A stretch of 37,057 nucleotides of DNA, taken from positions 1 to 37,057 of the IMG/VR virus record IMGVR_UViG_2648501920_000014. One strand, 5' to 3'. This document shows positions 2,001 to 26,533 of the stretch, one piece after another; the first letter of the stretch is position 1, and every line of letters starts with the position of its first letter. The position numbers were made by a program, and so were the translations under genes. The notes beneath the pieces were generated by a model, which saw nothing but the letters and a program-made list of their open reading frames with translations, was not told the origin of the DNA and did not search any database. This stretch comes from a virus (Duplodnaviria > Heunggongvirae > Uroviricota > Caudoviricetes).

Positions 2001-2297
2001 TCAAATAGAGAAATAAACACAAAAACAAAAAACAACAGGAACAGCAAAATCCAACAGACTTCCCACATCCCACACGCGTGGATCAAAACCTCCCCACCAC
2101 GGCATGTTGATACGTTTCCCTTTCCCAAACTTTTCTATCCAGCGATATTCTGCCTGGGTGTGTTCACGCGCAATGAAGAACGTACAACCGGCTATCGCAC
2201 CGTAAGCCCAGTTTCCGGTAAAAATACCAACCAGTACCTGAGCCACAAAAGCGCAAAGCGAGTGAAGAAATGGAGTGACATCAATGCTCTTAATCAT
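2001..2297 (-). CDS. Small hydrophobic membrane protein, function unknown
   Basis: ATG at 2297 overlapping tail fibre stop (ATGA); 98 aa, hydrophobic, AT-rich gene between tail fibre and lysis genes. Confidence 0.4.
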   Translation of the reverse strand: MIKSIDVTPFLHSLCAFVAQVLVGIFTGNWAYGAIAGCTFFIAREHTQAEYRWIEKFGKGKRINMPWWGGFDPRVWDVGSLLDFAVPVVFCFCVYFSI

Positions 2298-4483
2298 GAA
2301 ACTTCCCCATTGGTTGAAAATATGGCTCCTCCAACGCCAAGTGTATTTCGTGTTGTGCTCAACCTCAGAGGGCTGGAGTCAGAATTAGAATATCCTGTAG
2401 CAGAAATAAAAGATCCTCCACTAATAGTCAACTGCGGAACATCGGCTATATCTGAATAAGTTCTGTCAGCAACAGTATTATTTATAGCCACATATGATCC
2501 AAAAAAACTTCTTATTGTTTGGTTTTTAACTTTACTTCCTTCAATGGTTATCCTACTACCACAGTCGGCAATAAATCCTGAATCTGCATCCAGCGTTGCA
2601 TTCATAAAAGAAGCTTCAGATCTCTCTACATCAATCCATCTAATATCTTTTGTGGGATTTGCACCAAATACATGACAAATATTAGAGTTAAACCTTACAC
2701 CATCTTGGAGGTGCATTAATTTTTTTATATCTGTACCCCATAGCCTTGGAAAATTAACAGATGCTCCTGCATGGCAATCAAATCCCAGCTCAGCCCCTGA
2801 GATATCTACAGCCTTTCCTGAAATAACAGCACCAGTGTCTGCATTAACGGCTGTTCCACAATTGCGCATATCATTACCAGCAACATCAACGCAACCCGCA
2901 CCATCAATACGCACACCAAGTGCACATCCATAAAAACCTTTTTCAATATTTGGTTCAAGGACTTTACCACTTGTTTCTGCATCACTTTCTTCAACGTCAT
3001 GTCGTCTTGCATCAACATATGCTGTATGAATGCAGGTTAATCCACGATATGAGCAATGTATAGTTTTATGGTCGCGTATATTAACATTTGAACCATCTCT
3101 TACATTCCATCCTATATAACAATAGCTTGCACTTGACCCCTGAAAATCTGCTTTAACATTATAAATACAATTAACTGACGCAACCGTACTCTCTGTGCAC
3201 CGTTCAAACTTGCTTACAGGCATTGATGCCTTGACATTATTTACCAGTTGCAGGGAAGAGTATCTGCTATAAGAAAAATCACATACGTAATACCCTTCTG
3301 GCATATATGCAGCAACACTTTCCTCATCAGGAGCACATCCGGTATGATATGCACTAATTTTTGCACCAAAACTACCATGAATTCCAACGTAGAACTTTCG
3401 AGCACCTGAATACGGATAGAAATTAAGTTCAGCTTTTTGAGTTACAATAAATGCACAAACATCGCTATCATCTCTATTTTCTTCGATCTGAATAGCAAAT
3501 ACAGGACTTTTTGCTGCATCGCAAATGTAAAATAAATACTTGTATTCGTAATACGTTCTAACGATTTTAGTAAACAAACGAGTGTCAGAGAAAACCACTG
3601 AGTCTTCTGATGTTATTTTAATCCAAGACAAATCAACACCTGAACTGAATTCAATTTGATAGTTGATAATATGCCCGGTCTTAATTCTTATTTCGCAGAA
3701 AGCATTACCACCATCCCACATAGGTCTCATTGACTGGGCTGCAATGATTGCATCTTTGAGTGTAGGGTAATCACCCCATTCGCCAACAGTAATAACAAAA
3801 GTATAATATGAGTTAAAAACAGCGGCATTTTTGCCTTTGGATATCAACTCCTTAATCATAAAAATATTATCTTCGTAATCACAAGGAGAAATTATATCCC
3901 TCATTTTGCTTTGAAATGTTCGTTGTCTTGCCCCGCTTCCTGACGGTATAAACCAACCAAAACCACCAACAACCCCGGCGATTGCAGCATCGACATAATT
4001 ACGCATTGAGCGATTATTTACAGCGTCCTGCTCAAATGATGGATCTGCAAGGTTAGAAATTTTGTTTTGCTTTGCATCGTAATATTTTGCAAGCAAAGAT
4101 GGTTTCATCAATGCACGTCTGAACCACCCAAAACATCGCTGGATCAGCATCGTCAGGTAGTCAAATGCATCTTCATGAACTTCGGGGAAAAATTTTCCCT
4201 GATTGCGAAGATCAGTCTCCTGCACCACATCAAGCACACGCTCTATCGTAATTCGCCAGCCAGCAGCAAGCGGCGACGGGAGAACCACTTCACCGCCACT
4301 ATAAGTGCCCGCTCCAGTTACCTTATAACCGGTATCCAGAACCAATTCTGTTACGTTCCCGTTCAGGTCAGACACCTGAACAACCAGGTCGGTTTTTTTG
4401 AAAATACGGAAGGTATACGGAAATGATGTCGTAACGCCGTTACCGGTGTATTCGTTGTGGTCAACTTCGGTTGAGACCGTCAT
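2294..4483 (-). CDS. Tail fibre / tailspike with T7-type N-terminal anchor and beta-helix-like distal receptor-binding region
   Basis: ATG at 4483; first ~110 aa match the T7 tail-fibre N-terminal pattern; remainder is Gly/Asn/Asp/Val/Ile/Cys-rich and visibly AT-rich. Confidence 0.7.
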   Translation of the reverse strand: MTVSTEVDHNEYTGNGVTTSFPYTFRIFKKTDLVVQVSDLNGNVTELVLDTGYKVTGAGTYSGGEVVLPSPLAAGWRITIERVLDVVQETDLRNQGKFFPEVHEDAFDYLTMLIQRCFGWFRRALMKPSLLAKYYDAKQNKISNLADPSFEQDAVNNRSMRNYVDAAIAGVVGGFGWFIPSGSGARQRTFQSKMRDIISPCDYEDNIFMIKELISKGKNAAVFNSYYTFVITVGEWGDYPTLKDAIIAAQSMRPMWDGGNAFCEIRIKTGHIINYQIEFSSGVDLSWIKITSEDSVVFSDTRLFTKIVRTYYEYKYLFYICDAAKSPVFAIQIEENRDDSDVCAFIVTQKAELNFYPYSGARKFYVGIHGSFGAKISAYHTGCAPDEESVAAYMPEGYYVCDFSYSRYSSLQLVNNVKASMPVSKFERCTESTVASVNCIYNVKADFQGSSASYCYIGWNVRDGSNVNIRDHKTIHCSYRGLTCIHTAYVDARRHDVEESDAETSGKVLEPNIEKGFYGCALGVRIDGAGCVDVAGNDMRNCGTAVNADTGAVISGKAVDISGAELGFDCHAGASVNFPRLWGTDIKKLMHLQDGVRFNSNICHVFGANPTKDIRWIDVERSEASFMNATLDADSGFIADCGSRITIEGSKVKNQTIRSFFGSYVAINNTVADRTYSDIADVPQLTISGGSFISATGYSNSDSSPLRLSTTRNTLGVGGAIFSTNGEVS

Positions 4484-4657: not shown

Positions 4658-4678
4658 TTATTGCATGGAGAAGATAAG

Positions 4679-4936
4679 ATGCAGCAGTATCACTATCCAC
4701 TGGAAGACGGATTTACCGAAAGGATTCACACGCCGGGAGGCGTCAGGTCACTGGTGGAGGGATCGCACTTGATGAAATTACTCCGGGATCTCGATAAGGA
4801 TGGATTTAATGTCGATGGCCCACTTGCCGAACTGACTGCACTAATTAACTACGTCACCAGCTCACAGATGTCTATGCGGGATCTGCAAACACATCTCGAC
4901 TATTGTGCCGAACAATTACGAAAACAAACCAGATAA
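4679..4936 (+). CDS. Small protein (85 aa), SOS-box-fronted; paralogue of the C-terminal domain of the adjacent Bro-N protein; candidate antirepressor
   Basis: ATG at 4679 with GGAG SD (track ORF begins at TTG 4661); stop TAA 4934-4936; by-eye alignment to Bro-N residues ~165-228. Confidence 0.55.
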   Translation: MQQYHYPLEDGFTERIHTPGGVRSLVEGSHLMKLLRDLDKDGFNVDGPLAELTALINYVTSSQMSMRDLQTHLDYCAEQLRKQTR

Positions 4937-4982: not shown

Positions 4983-5072
4983 ATTTACATCGCACTCCTC
5001 TTGTGCCATAGTAATCGGGCACTGGCAAAATCCAGTGCCGGGATTGGCGTCCCGGGTTACTAAGTGGCGCAT

Positions 5073-5096
5073 ACCACGCCAGACGTGGTTTTTTTA
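5073..5096 (+). terminator. Rho-independent terminator (ACCACG-CCAGA-CGTGGT + T-run)
   Basis: 6-bp stem, 5-nt loop, followed by 6-7 T; ends an ORF-free transcript of about 120 nt that starts near 4975. Confidence 0.5.
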
Positions 5097-5251
5097 TGCG
5101 TTAAGCACAGCTATATCCGAATTATGGTGGGCTGGGCAGGGGTCCGAAAGGACGCCGGTACCACTTAGGCCGGTACGCCAACCTTGTCCAGTTCACCACC
5201 AGTAATTGGCGTTGCGGTGGTGATTAAAATCACTAAGTGGAGATAACCACC

Positions 5252-5962
5252 ATGGCTAATGCTCAAACTGCCATCTTCAAATTTGAATCTGTTAACCCTA
5301 TCCGTTCCATCATTATCGATGGCCAACCATGGTTTGTAGCCCAAGACGTTTGTAGTGCGCTGCGTATCCAAAACGTCACCCAAGCACTTGAAAAACTGGA
5401 TGATGATGAAAGGTCTATGTTCAACATAGGGCATGAACATCGTGCAATTTTTGACAGCCGAGTAAAAGAGATCAACATCATCTCCGAGTCAGGCCTCTAC
5501 ACACTGATCCTCCGCTGCCGCGACGCAGTGACACCAGGCACTATCCCCTACCGCTTTCGTAAATGGGTTACAGGTGAGGTTCTTCCTCAGATCCGCCGCA
5601 CCGGAAGTTACATTAAAAACTCGCTCCCGCAGGAAGAACGCATAAAGATAGTTGCCGACCAGGTAGCCAACGCCACAGCATCAGCAGTGATGCAGGCAAT
5701 GAAGATAGAGAACAAAACCTACAGTGCCCCACTGAAGCCCGGCTACCGCAGCCTGATTCATTCTCCGTCTGGTGTTCTCGGCCTGACGGAGAACTCACTG
5801 CTGATGAATCTGCTGAACCAGTTACAGGAAGACGGGCACGACGTATCGGGCGCGGCGGCGGAGCTGACCACCATGTTCTGCTACATTGTTGGTGTGAGCA
5901 AATGCCTGCGTGATATCCAGACCCACGCGGAGTACATCAACGACAAGGCTGGGTTCTTCTGA
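5252..5962 (+). CDS. Bro-N domain protein (antirepressor-like) with C-terminal domain paralogous to the 4679-4936 product
   Basis: ATG at 5252 with GGAGA SD (track ORF begins at GTG 5237); N-terminal ~115 aa match the Bro-N pattern (WFVAQDVCSALRI, GLYTLIL, FRKWVTGEVLPQIRRTGSY). Confidence 0.7.
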   Translation: MANAQTAIFKFESVNPIRSIIIDGQPWFVAQDVCSALRIQNVTQALEKLDDDERSMFNIGHEHRAIFDSRVKEINIISESGLYTLILRCRDAVTPGTIPYRFRKWVTGEVLPQIRRTGSYIKNSLPQEERIKIVADQVANATASAVMQAMKIENKTYSAPLKPGYRSLIHSPSGVLGLTENSLLMNLLNQLQEDGHDVSGAAAELTTMFCYIVGVSKCLRDIQTHAEYINDKAGFF

Positions 5963-6061: not shown

Positions 6062-6229
6062 ATGACAGCGTTGAAAAATCGTACTCAGCACAATGAACAA
6101 GCCAAGCAATGCTGGGATGTCATTGGAAAAGTTATGCTTGGCCGCGCAAGCAAAGAGCGCGACAAGGATATGGTTTACCAGACAGGAACATCTTTCAGCG
6201 ACTTCAAGGCGGCATTTCGCTCCAAATAG
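6062..6229 (+). CDS. Small protein (55 aa), unknown function; first gene of an AT-rich two-gene cassette
   Basis: ATG at 6062, GGAGG SD at 6051-6055, stop TAG 6227-6229; below the 60-aa track cutoff, read by hand. Confidence 0.4.
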   Translation: MTALKNRTQHNEQAKQCWDVIGKVMLGRASKERDKDMVYQTGTSFSDFKAAFRSK

Positions 6230-6249
6230 AAGCACATCAGGAGTTTTCC

Positions 6250-6690
6250 TTGAAGTTTAACATTAGAATATCTAATAGTTTTCTACATGGGGAAAGCAAC
6301 ACCCCTTTCGCTGTAGACGGACCTTTCCTTACTGATGATGAAATAAAAATCATACAAAGTTTTTTAGAGGATGTTGCCAATGGAAGGGCGCTTGTTGGAA
6401 AAAACAAGCCCTCGTGGGTTGATGATAACCATGATAAAATTCCCGGCTCAGACAATTATGAGCAAGAGAATTATTGGCATTATCATTGTGGGCCAACATG
6501 GTATCCAAACACATTTAAGAATTATACCATTAACTTAAATTTCAACCCTGGCGGAAGGCATTCTAATGAATGCATTCATTATGCAAAAAATGATAATGAA
6601 ATTGTCATTGTTGGATTTTCAAGAGAACACATACCTTTCCTTTCATCAGATGGAAACAACAATCCGCTTTTTAATGATGAAGAAGAATAG
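6250..6690 (+). CDS. Hypothetical protein (~146 aa), acidic C-terminus (NDEEE), AT-rich
   Basis: No internal Met; most plausible start is TTG 6250 with AGGAG SD at 6239-6243 (track ORF begins at ATG 6109, which would overlap the upstream gene); stop TAG 6688-6690. Confidence 0.45.
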   Translation: MKFNIRISNSFLHGESNTPFAVDGPFLTDDEIKIIQSFLEDVANGRALVGKNKPSWVDDNHDKIPGSDNYEQENYWHYHCGPTWYPNTFKNYTINLNFNPGGRHSNECIHYAKNDNEIVIVGFSREHIPFLSSDGNNNPLFNDEEE

Positions 6691-6711
6691 CCCGCGCTGC
6701 GGGCTTTTTTG
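6689..6711 (+). terminator. Rho-independent terminator (AGCCCGC-GCT-GCGGGCT + TTTTT)
   Basis: 7-bp GC-rich stem directly after the 6690 stop, followed by a T-run. Confidence 0.6.
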
Positions 6712-6782
6712 TGGGCGAAACAAAAGTCAGTGCTACACTCATTGACGCCACATTGAGGTGGCTTATAGATGGAAATTTCACA

Positions 6783-6944
6783 ATGAAAAAAGCATTTGCT
6801 GCACTGTTCGTTTTGTTGTCTCTGGTAGCTTCAACTCAGGCCTTTGCCGGTCGTTGTCAGCACGACAGCGACACTGCTGCTGACGGCTCCCGCTGCGGTG
6901 GGCGTTCTGCGGATTCCCGCCCTGGTGGCGGTGGCATTCGTTAA
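6783..6944 (+). CDS. Small secreted peptide precursor (53 aa; signal peptide plus ~31-aa Gly/Cys-containing mature part)
   Basis: ATG at 6783; MKKAFAALFVLLSLVASTQAFA looks like a Sec signal peptide with an AFA-G cleavage site; stop TAA 6942-6944; SD is weak. Confidence 0.4.
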   Translation: MKKAFAALFVLLSLVASTQAFAGRCQHDSDTAADGSRCGGRSADSRPGGGGIR

Positions 6945-6966
6945 AAACAAGGCCGCGAAAGCGGCC
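6943..6966 (-). terminator. Hairpin GGCCGC-GAAA-GCGGCC with T-run on the minus strand
   Basis: On the minus strand the hairpin is followed by TTGTTTTT; lies just downstream of the lipoprotein gene end (6983). Confidence 0.45.
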
Positions 6967-6967
6967 T

Positions 6968-6979
6968 GTGACATGTCAC
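6968..6979. repeat. 12-bp perfect palindrome GTGACATGTCAC (copy A)
   Basis: Identical palindrome also at 24071-24082 and 26522-26533; this copy lies between the plus-strand accessory island and the minus-strand lipoprotein gene. Confidence 0.5.
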
Positions 6980-6982
6980 GAC

Positions 6983-7396
6983 TTATAAAGATGACTGATA
7001 TTTTACAACTCTGTTCATGGCATCTTTTTTCACCGAGCTGATATCAGTTCTTATTTTGGCTTCGTCATTACTGCTTATCATGCTATTAATTTTTTGCACT
7101 GACATGCCGTTTCTTTCAGCCATTGCACATACAGCAGCATCGTATGAAGAACTCGCTGCGATGGATATCACCTTGTTACACTCAAACACAGCACCTTCAG
7201 CAATATCAGATGCCGATGAGGCTGGCTTGGTATAAGTCTTGACGTAGTGATCAATACAACTATCCTTCGCCGTCTTGGCAAGAGAAAAATCCATTTTAAC
7301 TTTGTCGCAATATGCCTTATCAACACCGTCATAAACATCATAGGATGTCGAGCAAGCGGATATCAAAAATACCGATAACAGCAATAATTCCTTCAT
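6983..7396 (-). CDS. Lipoprotein (137 aa), AT-rich accessory gene
   Basis: ATG at 7396; signal peptide MKELLLLSVFLISAC with lipobox ISAC; visibly lower GC than flanking virion genes. Confidence 0.6.
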   Translation of the reverse strand: MKELLLLSVFLISACSTSYDVYDGVDKAYCDKVKMDFSLAKTAKDSCIDHYVKTYTKPASSASDIAEGAVFECNKVISIAASSSYDAAVCAMAERNGMSVQKINSMISSNDEAKIRTDISSVKKDAMNRVVKYQSSL

Positions 7397-7405
7397 TGTT
7401 GTTCC

Positions 7406-9880
7406 TTATTGCGGAGTGACATCCTGAGGTCGCCACCAGTATGTCTGGTTAAACTCTTTCTTCGAACGTTGCTCCATTTTACGCAAATAGCCTGGTGAAA
7501 AATACTCCTGCATCTGATTAAAGATCATGTGATCGAGAGCCGCCTTCAAGTACCAGAGATTCGCACCAGGCATCAAACCTTTCCCAAGCTTAACCAGATC
7601 ACCACCAGTCTGCTCATTCTTCCCTTCCACAGCATTTAACGGTATGCCCTGAGCAATCTTCACTACGTCATCAACCAGACCAGCTACCGGGCCAAGCATC
7701 GACGCTAGTGCGCCGCTCCCGTACCTGGTGTGGTCAGAGAAAAGAAAATCACCATACAACCCTGCCCCACCACCTTTTAAAAATGCATTTATCCAGAATT
7801 TAACCATGTTGTCACCGGTCATTTCTTTTGGATTTCTCCCATTAATAAGATCAGTAATCTGCATGGAAAGAGCACCAAGCATGGTTGTGCTTGCTAAAAA
7901 CGTTGCTATATATGCCGCACGCCCACCAGCAGACGGCATCCCCATAGCTCTATGCCAGTGACGCATAACTACCGAGATAGGGAACGATTTAAACAGGAAA
8001 ACACTTCTCGTTAATTCACCTTTCCATGTTCCACGCTGAAGACCAGACCCTACGAACATCTGTTCACGTGCGCCCGGTGTAATAACAGCCATATCAACTT
8101 CTTCAGTTACGGCACCGAGCAGTTTACGCATTGCCTCAAATTTCACGCGTTCAGGCTCACCAAGATGTTTAACTGCTGAATCAGGGATACGCATAATGCT
8201 TTCCGGTGTCAGCATCGTATTATTACCGTTCCCCCAGTCCTCCTGTTGCGCCAGCTTCCATACGCTCCAGTCTGTGTCAGTAATCCCTTTGCTTTTCAGG
8301 ATACGAAAATCAGAGTCATCGAGGCTACGAAGGTCTGGTGTCCGTGACACTACTTCTCCCAGGCTTCCCATCATGGTTACGCCATAGGCGCGCTTGTGCG
8401 CATCTGACCATGCTGTAAGCCCACTGGCACGCATTACCGCCGTTGCCGCCCAACGAGACACAGACGGCCCCATATTATCCATCGCCCAGCGGTTAACGCT
8501 GCCAAGTAGAGATTCCATCGCCAGGCCAGCGCGGCGCGCCCGCGCAAGCTCAGTACGGTTCGTTGGATCCATAGCTTCAAGCTGGTTGCGAAATAACTGG
8601 TTCATTGGAAGGTTGGTAACCTTCGCAGACAGATACATGGTTCCAAGATCAGAGAACGATGACAGCAACGCGGATCCGAGTCTGCTGGCAACCAGCCAGT
8701 TGCGGATATTGTCAGACCATCGCGCGATGTGCGGATTCGCTACAGGCTGTGTTTTTCCGGAAATAAAGTTGTACAGGTTCTCTGTTTTGTTCGCCAGACG
8801 CTCGACGCTACCGGTTTTACTCGGGTTAGCTGTTGCCGTTTCTGCCTTCACCTGATCAAGAAGAGAGCGGAAAACATGATCGGGGTTTGGGCCATATGTT
8901 TCCACCAGTGCAATATCTTTACTGATACCTTCAAGGTGACCGACCATGATTTCCCATAGAGAGCGATCGCCATAAAGTTGCTGATATTGCAGATAGGAAT
9001 CTGCATCTTTGAAATGTATCTGTCGTGATGCATTACCACGGTTAGCACGTGCGCCGGAAATTCGCATTCCGGTATCAGTAAGCTTATTCAGCCCACCAGT
9101 AGCGATCGTGTTATAAGCCTCTCCAAGAAATGCAGACAACTCGGCATCGTTCATCAGTTGTCCATCGGCTCGGGTATAATATTTGCGATCCAGCTTACCT
9201 ATAACATCGCTAACCCATTTATCTTTTGATACCGCCCCAACCTTTTCCATAGAATGATGTTGAGGGATCCCCCAGTTTTCGAGATAGCCAATGTCCCCAC
9301 CAGCATCATTAAACCGGCGGCGCAGCAGCTCTGTAACTTCTCTCCACGCCTTAGCACCTTTTCTTGCTTTAGCATTGCCAGTATTTTGCCCCCGCATTTC
9401 ATATACCAGGTCACGTACGCCCGCTTCATCTTCAAACAGACCAAAAAAGCGAGGATCAACTGCTTCGAATGCCTCCTGCAATTGACTCAATGCATAATCA
9501 CGGGTGGCTTTTGTTCTGGATTCAACAGAGAGGAAATTCGATTTACCGTCTGCATTAAAAGCAATAGTACGGTTAAGAGCGCCAAGTTTCCCATCAGCCC
9601 CTTGATAGCTATTGATAAATTTATCCAATCTCTGACGTGCGGCTATAGTGAGGGCCACACGACGTTTCTTTAATGCCGCTTCTCGCTGTAATTCTTCAGA
9701 TGCCAATTGTGCTGCACGATACAACCGTTCTGATTCGGAAAGTTGTCGCCACGACATCGGGTCATCACGAGCAATGGAGCGCATATTTCGATAAATGCGG
9801 TCTTCAATGTTCTGTATTTCTCGCGCCGTTAACGTGCGCTGCGCCGCCTGCTGGACCGCTTGTATACATTCCTGTCTCAT
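7406..9880 (-). CDS. Large virion internal / ejection protein (824 aa)
   Basis: ATG at 9880; long ORF in the structural operon between internal-protein genes and the tail fibre region; assignment by position and size only. Confidence 0.5.
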   Translation of the reverse strand: MRQECIQAVQQAAQRTLTAREIQNIEDRIYRNMRSIARDDPMSWRQLSESERLYRAAQLASEELQREAALKKRRVALTIAARQRLDKFINSYQGADGKLGALNRTIAFNADGKSNFLSVESRTKATRDYALSQLQEAFEAVDPRFFGLFEDEAGVRDLVYEMRGQNTGNAKARKGAKAWREVTELLRRRFNDAGGDIGYLENWGIPQHHSMEKVGAVSKDKWVSDVIGKLDRKYYTRADGQLMNDAELSAFLGEAYNTIATGGLNKLTDTGMRISGARANRGNASRQIHFKDADSYLQYQQLYGDRSLWEIMVGHLEGISKDIALVETYGPNPDHVFRSLLDQVKAETATANPSKTGSVERLANKTENLYNFISGKTQPVANPHIARWSDNIRNWLVASRLGSALLSSFSDLGTMYLSAKVTNLPMNQLFRNQLEAMDPTNRTELARARRAGLAMESLLGSVNRWAMDNMGPSVSRWAATAVMRASGLTAWSDAHKRAYGVTMMGSLGEVVSRTPDLRSLDDSDFRILKSKGITDTDWSVWKLAQQEDWGNGNNTMLTPESIMRIPDSAVKHLGEPERVKFEAMRKLLGAVTEEVDMAVITPGAREQMFVGSGLQRGTWKGELTRSVFLFKSFPISVVMRHWHRAMGMPSAGGRAAYIATFLASTTMLGALSMQITDLINGRNPKEMTGDNMVKFWINAFLKGGGAGLYGDFLFSDHTRYGSGALASMLGPVAGLVDDVVKIAQGIPLNAVEGKNEQTGGDLVKLGKGLMPGANLWYLKAALDHMIFNQMQEYFSPGYLRKMEQRSKKEFNQTYWWRPQDVTPQ

Positions 9881-20873: not shown

Positions 20874-21170
20874 TCACTCCTGTTCACTGGCCTCTTTGGC
20901 CATCTTCAAATACTGTTCAGGGCAATGCGCCATAACGCGCTGAAACAGTTCCAGCGCCAGATTGCGTTGCCCCTCATTAAATGCCATTGCCATAGCGTCC
21001 ATCGGTGAGATAGCGGAAAACACACGGCCTTTCTCCAGCACCGACCAGACAACGCGACGCCCCTGTTCACTGCTCATGACAAAGCGAATGTCATCAATTT
21101 CACGCTGTGCCATGTCACGTTGCTTACGGGCGTTTTCTTCTTTCAGTTGATCGTCTTCGTAATCTGTCAT
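20874..21170 (-). CDS. Hypothetical protein (~98 aa)
   Basis: ATG at 21170 overlapping portal stop (ATGA); track ORF starts at GTG 21185. Confidence 0.45.
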   Translation of the reverse strand: MTDYEDDQLKEENARKQRDMAQREIDDIRFVMSSEQGRRVVWSVLEKGRVFSAISPMDAMAMAFNEGQRNLALELFQRVMAHCPEQYLKMAKEASEQE

Positions 21171-23494: not shown

Positions 23495-23571
23495 GTGGCA
23501 TTAGCTCAGTCGGACAGAGCAACCGCCTTCTAAGCGGTTGGTCGCAGGTTCGAATCCTGCATGCCACGCCA
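23495..23571 (+). tRNA. tRNA-Arg (anticodon TCT, reads AGA)
   Basis: Cloverleaf read by hand: acceptor GTGGCAT/ATGCCAC, D-stem GCTC/GAGC, anticodon stem ACCGC/GCGGT with loop CTTCTAA, T-arm GCAGG-TTCGAAT-CCTGC, discriminator G, encoded CCA. Confidence 0.85.
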
Positions 23572-24070: not shown

Positions 24071-24082
24071 GTGACATGTCAC
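24071..24082. repeat. 12-bp perfect palindrome GTGACATGTCAC (copy B), preceded by ATAACACC
   Basis: 5 nt after the DUF2829-like stop; flanking ATAACACC also present at copy C; followed by hairpin AGCCAGC-CTATGA-GCTGGCT. Confidence 0.5.
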
Positions 24083-26521: not shown

Positions 26522-26533
26522 GTGACATGTCAC
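26522..26533. repeat. 12-bp perfect palindrome GTGACATGTCAC (copy C), with ATAACACC nearby
   Basis: 10 nt upstream of ATG 26512 on the minus strand; shares the GGTGTTAT flank with copy B. Confidence 0.5.

Follow-up and report, generated by a model that had tools for sequence, protein, structure and literature searches.

The window, by which we mean the whole 37,057-nt stretch of DNA analysed here, is recognisable from its sequence as an epsilon15/phiV10-like (Uetakevirus) Escherichia coli prophage. The region under study is 99% identical to Escherichia phages phiv142-3 and HEMP4 and 95% identical to TL-2011b, and the genome of each of these phages is annotated with the same 53-aa ORF. Phage phiv142-3 is classified in Uetakevirus, the genus of phiV10 and also of epsilon15. 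The ORF lies on the plus strand between the anti-repressor region and the late structural genes, and is accompanied by a compact set of predicted signals (Table 1).

Table 1. Features of the peptide locus and other elements of the window
Feature	Position	Strand	Remarks
Tailspike gene	2294-4483	-	
gp19-like gene	4661-4936	+	
C4 antisense-RNA / isrK immunity element	5006-5203		Rfam
Bro-N anti-repressor gene	5237-5962		
193-aa gene (orf6109)	6109-6690		phrog_5954, E=2e-73; = L001 2510-3091
Terminator hairpin (6689-6705) and T-run	6689-6711	+	7-bp stem, 6 GC pairs, TTTTTTG
Candidate extended -10 element TGcTACACT	6731-6739	+	prediction; TG 6731-6732, TACACT 6734-6739
Hexamer TTGACG	6742-6747	+	
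Dyad GCCAC-ATTGAG-GTGGC	6747-6762	+	probable 5'-terminal mRNA stem-loop
Shine-Dalgarno (SD) element GGA	6771-6773	+	9 nt before the ATG
Peptide ORF	6783-6944	+	ATG start, 53 aa
Predicted signal peptide MKKAFAALFVLLSLVASTQAFA	6783-6848	+	Sec, signal peptidase I, A-F-A↓G
Predicted mature peptide GRCQHDSDTAADGSRCGGRSADSRPGGGGIR	6849-6941	+	31 aa; Cys3 and Cys16 invariant
Stop codon TAA	6942-6944	+	
GC-rich hairpin AGGCCGC-GAAA-GCGGCCT	6950-6967		T-run on minus strand only
Backbone palindrome GTGACATGTCAC	6968-6979		right edge of conserved cassette
Predicted lipoprotein gene	6983-7396	-	137 aa; phrog_8691, E=2e-91
gp17-like "pilot" protein gene	7406-9880	-	remaining structural operon lies beyond it
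One-mismatch copy of GTGACATGTCAC	21107-21118		
tRNA-Arg (anticodon TCT)	23495-23571	+	between portal and terminase region genes
Second exact copy of GTGACATGTCAC	24071-24082		
Third exact copy of GTGACATGTCAC	26522-26533		

Is the 53-codon ORF a gene? Its translation is identical to that given in the preliminary description. Within 3 kb here there are 35 ORFs of at least 30 aa, and a length of 53 aa is by itself not above chance; conservation, not ORF length, therefore decides the coding status. The 80 loci first sampled had been selected at 100% protein identity and are biased for dN/dS, and to avoid selecting on the protein we instead used a 27-nt stretch of non-coding DNA ahead of the ATG as the anchor for retrieving relatives. 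The intact ORF is kept in 86 of the 87 anchor-retrieved loci, the remaining one carrying a frameshift, so that the conservation in related prophages proposed earlier as a check on the ORF is borne out. These loci differ by 26 synonymous and 5 nonsynonymous changes, all five of the latter being singletons, against a neutral expectation of 26% for the synonymous share (binomial p=3e-11). Among 58 distinct core sequences from all taxa, the pooled pN/pS is 0.22 and pS is 0.65, and between TL-2011b and the region under study, the DNA is 95.3% identical and the peptide protein 100% identical. The SD element is indeed weak, as had been pointed out, but distant homologues carry strong ones (AGGAGG, GAGGAG, and GGGGG), and together with the purifying selection and the intact ORFs this removes the doubt formerly attached to the coding status. 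As far as sequence analysis reaches, the 53-codon ORF is a genuine gene under purifying selection. It is scarcely credible that the ORF arose by chance, as the weak SD might suggest, or that the real product is the 77-aa GTG-initiated form (6711-6944) modelled by phrog_3117, considering that the synonymous excess matches the frame of the 53-codon ORF, and that the 24-codon upstream extension crosses the terminator T-run and the promoter region and is missing from other genera, which have in-frame stops a short way ahead of the gene; the 77-aa ORF was accordingly rejected.

The 53-aa product shows both the signal-peptide features and the two cysteines that had been noticed in it. It possesses the hallmarks of a Sec precursor: an MKK n-region, a 13-residue hydrophobic core, and an A-F-A↓G site. 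Of 140 unique stand-alone family members, 88% have Ala at position -1, three residues before the first cysteine, and 94% have Gly at position +1. One of A, S, V, T, or G occupies position -3 in 95%, Lys or Arg occurs within residues 2-6 in 94%, and the median peak hydropathy is 2.9. The A-x-A↓G cleavage site as a whole is kept in about 90% of the 140. In the family alignment, the N-terminal 22-27 residues are freely variable yet hydrophobic, and the mature core is almost constant. The product is thus predicted to be a Sec/signal-peptidase-I precursor of the textbook type, with the cleavage site itself evidently under selection. The lipobox pattern [LVI][ASTVI][GAS]C is absent, as the corresponding segment reads F-A-G-R-C and an extra residue separates Gly from Cys in nearly all members, and a lipoprotein was rejected on this ground. 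Given the conserved signal-peptidase-I site and the missing lipobox, we expect with high probability a soluble, cleaved periplasmic peptide, with 27-31 residues across the family and about 31 here.

The two invariant cysteines are 12 residues apart and would reside in the oxidising periplasm, and a Cys3-Cys16 disulfide is therefore likely in the mature peptide. In the AlphaFold model (31 sequences), which has a moderate pLDDT of 74, the signal helix is the sole clear element, and the mature part is mostly irregular with one bridge. The MgrB-type small envelope regulators are likewise precursors of about 50 aa with a short periplasmic part and two conserved cysteines. However, MgrB keeps its transmembrane helix, whereas the present peptide is predicted to be cleaved, and has neither homology to MgrB nor a sensor-kinase link.

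The mature core, C-x-H-x6-DGS-x-CG-x-R-x2-D-x-R-P-GG, is nearly invariant in alpha-, beta-, and gammaproteobacteria. In 31 diverse members, the columns C25, A32, G35, S36, C38, R41, D44, R46, G48, and G49 are invariant. The first homology search yielded 57 clusters, from E. coli, Shigella, Klebsiella, Citrobacter, Cronobacter, Franconibacter, Salmonella, Pectobacterium, and Dickeya; a profile search yielded 843 homologues, Mesorhizobium included; and an exhaustive HMMER search yielded 516 representatives at E up to 1e-3. Almost all of the 843 homologues and 516 representatives are around 50 aa long. Genome scans added Haemophilus, Azospirillum, Brucella, Methylobacterium, Microvirga, Rickettsiales, Tolumonas, and Advenella, and a phage-database search added a homologue in Alcaligenes phage Piluca. 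The peptide is 100% identical to TL-2011b gp43 (YP_007001994.1) and phiv142-3 Orf11 (QGF19617.1), has the UniRef entry A0A0A1A7U0_ECOLX, and matches the PHROG 14503/3117 profile with E=2.3e-40 over positions 1-53 of 53. PHROG 14503 and PHROG 3117, carried at NCBI as "transmembrane anchored protein", therefore represent the same protein with no sequence difference. That family has been named only, and its membrane-anchor name conflicts with the conserved cleavage site. The gene thus belongs to a large and widespread family that is catalogued but uncharacterised, and it is nothing new in kind.

Scans of the peptide, 17 relatives, and 10 modular relatives against Pfam, NCBIfam, and PADLOC gave nothing above noise, and a PDB sequence-profile search gave no match at E up to 10. 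Weak matches to HxsA3, MarB, and YbgS were rejected, because they are driven by the signal peptide. A literature search by name, sequence motifs, and phages found no paper on the peptide.

The core motif also occurs as a module of larger proteins (P0124, P0129, P0151, P0153, P0157, P0162, P0174, P0184, P0188, P0194, P0200-P0203, P0213, and P0225). One SNase-type nuclease carries it at the C-terminus, and other proteins have it in tandem copies, between a signal sequence and a transmembrane helix followed by a cytoplasmic domain, or after a domain and a transmembrane helix. When the module is N-terminal to the transmembrane helix, the cytoplasmic domain is about 150 aa long and has no Pfam match. 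Judged by these architectures, the core motif is in effect an uncurated mini-domain. The genomic contexts of two modular relatives, P0184 and P0225, are short metagenome contigs and were uninformative. Chromosomal copies of the peptide gene with no surrounding phage genes occur in four Haemophilus species and one alphaproteobacterium. In H. haemolyticus, H. parainfluenzae, H. seminalis, and oral taxon 851 (L106-L109), an identical copy lies between yffB/dapE and htpG, and a divergently oriented XRE-family regulator accompanies it in all four; the alphaproteobacterial copy lies between bacA and ffh.

How might such a gene be expressed? The plus-strand terminator ends the upstream anti-repressor/orf6109 unit and forms the left edge of the conserved cassette. 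Downstream of it, more than 10 distinct cassette lineages have a TAnnnT hexamer at a conserved position, 6-8 nt ahead of a hairpin, with versions such as TACAAT, TAAACT, TACGCT, and TATAAA in relatives. Since a consensus promoter scan of the cassette upstream region made no call, the promoter remains a prediction. The hexamer TTGACG, which had been put forward as a possible -35 element, is present, but relatives read ATGAAG, ATAAAG, or TTAACG at this position, and as a -35 element it was rejected for lack of conservation. The preliminary description also saw no dyad, but a 5+5 bp inverted repeat lies directly upstream of the ATG. In relatives, at least eight different complementary stems occupy this position; the sequence varies and the arms stay complementary (GCCAC/GUGGC here, and GCCAC/GUGGU, GGCCACA/UGUGGCC, CCGC/GCGG, CUGC/GCAG, GGCUAUC/GAUAGCC, and ACCACC/GGUGGU, among others). 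The sequence CUACACA and then the SD follow 3' of this hairpin, and hairpins are also present upstream of the SD in the alphaproteobacterial copies. The fold z-scores of the hairpin regions are mixed, ranging from -0.7 to -5.4. With a transcription start about 7 nt after the -10 box, the hairpin would be located at the very 5' end of the mRNA. A 5'-terminal hairpin stabilises mRNAs in E. coli, as exemplified by ompA. Rfam scans of the window and four homologous loci detected no family at the 5' region.

Four alphaproteobacterial loci (L014, L099, L100, and L111) share another arrangement. At a distance of about 75 nt, the peptide ATG is preceded by a common motif, GATAGGTTT(T/C)T(C/T)(G/A)AACTCCCCG; next come a strong hairpin, whose sequence varies, and GAGGAGTTTTT-ATG, and there is no Rfam match. 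This arrangement could be a promoter plus a 5' stem-loop, or an unrecognised cis-regulatory element.

On the downstream side, the T-run of the GC-rich hairpin is on the minus strand only, and the hairpin is therefore assigned as the terminator of the converging late/lipoprotein transcript; the homologous site in phiV10 is annotated as a minus-strand terminator. On the plus strand, no U-tract follows the peptide gene at this hairpin, which may serve there as a stop or a stabiliser for the peptide mRNA. The hairpin is immediately followed by the perfect 12-bp palindrome GTGACATGTCAC, which occurs exactly three times in the window, as compared to an expected count of about 0.002 for an exact 12-mer. 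The copies at 6968 and 24071 each abut a terminator hairpin just past a gene end, and the copy at 26522 precedes a minus-strand ATG by about 9 nt. The backbone position of the palindrome is kept in phiV10, TL-2011b, and the Cronobacter, Buttiauxella, and Klebsiella relatives, and the repeat probably serves the phage backbone as a binding site for a regulator. The peptide gene had been described as having no operator repeat nearby, and the absence of operator gating was then used to argue for expression in the lysogen. In fact, one palindrome copy is located 24 nt after the stop codon, downstream of the gene and not in its promoter. Because both this palindrome and the upstream dyad are present, that argument goes back to a misreading.

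The Rfam matches upstream, directly preceding the Bro-N gene, are to a1/b1 targets, isrK, and C4 antisense RNA, and by these matches this Uetakevirus-like prophage carries an antisense immunity module of the P1/P7 type that controls ant. The 193-aa ORF is intact here; in its place, GenBank MN187550 shows Orf9 and Orf10, both short and both in other frames. In a study of phiv142-3, the sole functional work on this part of the prophage, "orf10" was deleted and linked to serum resistance (PMC7724020). As the single 193-aa ORF spans Orf9/Orf10, this deletion therefore took out part of the 193-aa gene. The authors state, with data not shown, that the deletion left the transcription of the downstream neighbours unaltered, and their list of 14 phiv142-3 genes with increased expression in serum does not include the peptide gene, orf11 (PMC7724020).

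The idea that the peptide gene is cargo is supported by the anatomy of its cassette. The cassette spans about 290 bp (about 6689-6980), since homology with other phages sets in around the upstream terminator (about 6667-6689) and stops with the palindrome, and hairpins flank the cassette on both sides. In phiV10, the slot is present with its minus-strand terminator and palindrome, and the peptide gene is absent. The G+C content of the cassette is 54.5%, as compared to 38.7% and 39.4% in the adjacent genes, and the peptide gene is encoded on the strand opposite to the late operon. Of 5426 complete E. coli genomes, 498 contain the cassette, each with at most three copies. Its absence from phiV10, its deviating G+C content, and its occurrence in this fraction of the E. 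coli genomes together identify the cassette, at the level of sequence, as a classic moron of an epsilon15-like prophage. It shares with the morons of other temperate phages (the Hendrix/Juhala concept; lambda bor and lom, and HK97 gp15) the position as an extra gene between backbone genes, the terminator flanks, the strand opposite to the late operon, the distinct G+C content, and the presence or absence among relatives. Unlike in bor, lom, and gp15, the promoter and the expression in the lysogen are only predicted here. Among 80 E. coli-type viral contigs with the constant peptide gene, the 193-aa gene is found in 9. The predicted lipoprotein (MKELLLLSVFLISAC, lipobox LISAC), encoded between the cassette and the pilot-protein gene, occurs in only 10 of these 80 and is therefore a second moron in the peptide's slot.

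Based on these observations, we favour, with moderate confidence, the explanation that an epsilon15/phiV10-like prophage carries here a genuine moron, encoding an exported peptide that would act on the envelope. A weak, extended -10 sigma-70 promoter would drive the gene without involvement of the late operon, and the mRNA would start with a stabilising stem-loop. The precursor would then be exported by Sec and cleaved after Ala22, and the 31-aa product would be oxidised in the periplasm to form the Cys3-Cys16 loop. The oxidised peptide would bind something common to proteobacterial envelopes, and this binding would alter an envelope property of the lysogen, resulting in lysogenic conversion that is most plausibly protective. 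A conserved ligand is suggested by the 25-residue core, which is almost invariant from Mesorhizobium to E. coli and is also used as an extracytoplasmic module of larger proteins. Our best guess regarding the function, drawn from conservation and architecture, is that the peptide may bind a conserved envelope component and protect the lysogen, and the earlier proposal of a "conversion factor" appears reasonable. Against this explanation we count the uncalled promoter, the weak SD, the missing plus-strand U-tract, the moderate AlphaFold model, and the absence from the serum list.

A more far-reaching version is offered tentatively. The disulfide-looped core of about 25 residues might represent an ancient binding module of Proteobacteria that works outside the cytoplasm and has so far escaped description. 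Temperate phages of several types would then have taken up its free form as a very successful conversion or exclusion factor directed at a universally conserved envelope target. The module occurs in free, membrane-tethered, and tandem forms and on a nuclease, and is absent from Pfam, NCBIfam, and PDB.

Could the peptide instead be a dedicated superinfection-exclusion factor of epsilon15-like podoviruses, blocking the ejection proteins (pilot or lytic transglycosylase) of a related phage, much as T4 Spackle blocks gp5? We consider this unlikely, although it is the likeliest of the alternatives. The idea arises from the variable slot of the peptide gene, which ends at the gp17-like pilot gene. 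In epsilon15-like prophages, which carry this slot in E. coli, Klebsiella, Cronobacter, Buttiauxella, Advenella, and Alcaligenes (phage Piluca), the peptide gene is always in the slot that ends at the pilot gene and converges on it, and 77 of 80 and 62 of 80 viral contigs with the peptide gene are of the epsilon15-like phage type. The slot also holds other periplasmic proteins, namely the lipoprotein here and a Rap1a-like protein in Klebsiella. The latter, a Pfam Rap1a match at 6711-7094 of a Klebsiella prophage (L004), lies beside the peptide gene in the same moron slot; Rap1a is a family of T6SS amidase-effector immunity proteins, and its presence suggests that the slot collects periplasmic protective proteins. 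T4 Spackle and Sp, Imm, T5 Llp, and phi80 Cor are likewise small phage-encoded proteins exported to the periplasm or the envelope, and in the present phage type the peptide gene adjoins genes for proteins that cross the periplasm. The peptide, however, has no sequence similarity to these proteins, is three times smaller than Spackle, and is also found outside phages. Moreover, the peptide is nearly invariant, whereas the adjoining pilot proteins are only 24-86% identical, and there is no PADLOC match for the peptide or its neighbours. The gene is also present in unrelated prophages: it adjoins MuF_C/LPD polyvalent proteins in Pectobacterium and Dickeya prophages, comes after RelB/YafQ and a lysis cassette in a single prophage of E. 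coli, directly follows a CI-like repressor in Tolumonas, and follows a lysis cassette in a Rhizobiales prophage. Finally, the chromosomal non-phage loci in Haemophilus and the alphaproteobacterium carry the gene, and the core is also a domain of non-phage proteins. The chromosomal, unrelated-prophage, and modular occurrences therefore argue for a generic extracytoplasmic binding module, with the free form as phage cargo.

Somewhat more doubtful is a small metal- or Ca2+-binding module like the Excalibur domain, in which case the free peptide would buffer or deliver a periplasmic cation. The core is rich in Asp, Ser, and Gly, has a DGS turn between the two cysteines and a mostly conserved His, and is found at the C-terminus of one SNase-type, Ca-dependent nuclease; Excalibur domains also occur on SNase-type nucleases. 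One Azospirillum copy is located inside a Czc/Cop/Ars metal-resistance island, but this metal-island context is a single case. The Excalibur domain (PF05901) is likewise a short extracytoplasmic Cys...Cys module with an Asp-Gly turn. In contrast to its cysteine spacing of about 30 residues, the spacing here is 12, and most members have no DxDxDG motif. The peptide, 17 relatives, and 10 modular relatives gave no match to PF05901 or to DxDxDGxxCE at E up to 1-10, nor was there a Pfam match to any metal-binding family at E up to 10. In addition, only two acidic positions are invariant, and many modular relatives have Tyr or Phe in place of the His.

The names in the NCBI and PHROG databases, "transmembrane anchored protein" and "membrane associated protein", imply that an uncleaved signal anchor holds the 31-residue tail at the periplasmic face, and the motif is indeed tethered beside a transmembrane helix in related larger proteins. 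We nevertheless regard this as improbable: the A-x-A↓G site is conserved family-wide though the remaining signal region varies freely, and the h-region is short, with 12-15 residues. Because the cleavage site is conserved, these names are probably misnomers.

A phage-phage or cell-cell communication peptide, arbitrium-like or pheromone-like, is very improbable. It would be small, secreted, and encoded by a temperate phage, and nothing more speaks for it. Three proteobacterial classes and many types of phage have almost the same mature sequence, there is no linked receptor gene, the neighbours vary and none recurs, and chromosomal and domain forms exist. The suggestion that the peptide might act as a signal is thus unlikely to hold, since the mature peptide is almost invariant, unlike the diversified communication peptides of phages. 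A class II microcin was also rejected, as the leader is of the Sec and not the double-glycine type, and no immunity or ABC-exporter genes are in the neighbourhood.

The peptide gene of this prophage is therefore best described as a credible, though in kind not novel, cargo gene, for which we favour a role in the envelope of the lysogen. It merits attention because the cassette is carried by about 9% of complete E. coli genomes, and the identical protein sequence is found on at least 1000 public contigs. The peptide is also encoded in many Klebsiella, Cronobacter, Salmonella, and Pectobacterium prophages, under a misleading name. A 3-kDa peptide conserved from rhizobia to enterics would, by this reasoning, have to recognise something fundamental in the envelope. 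The extreme conservation and high prevalence make it a good and cheap experimental target, and it is accessible to chemical synthesis. Its target could reveal a new route by which prophages alter host surfaces or exclude rivals, and would also annotate the mini-domain in hundreds of larger proteins.
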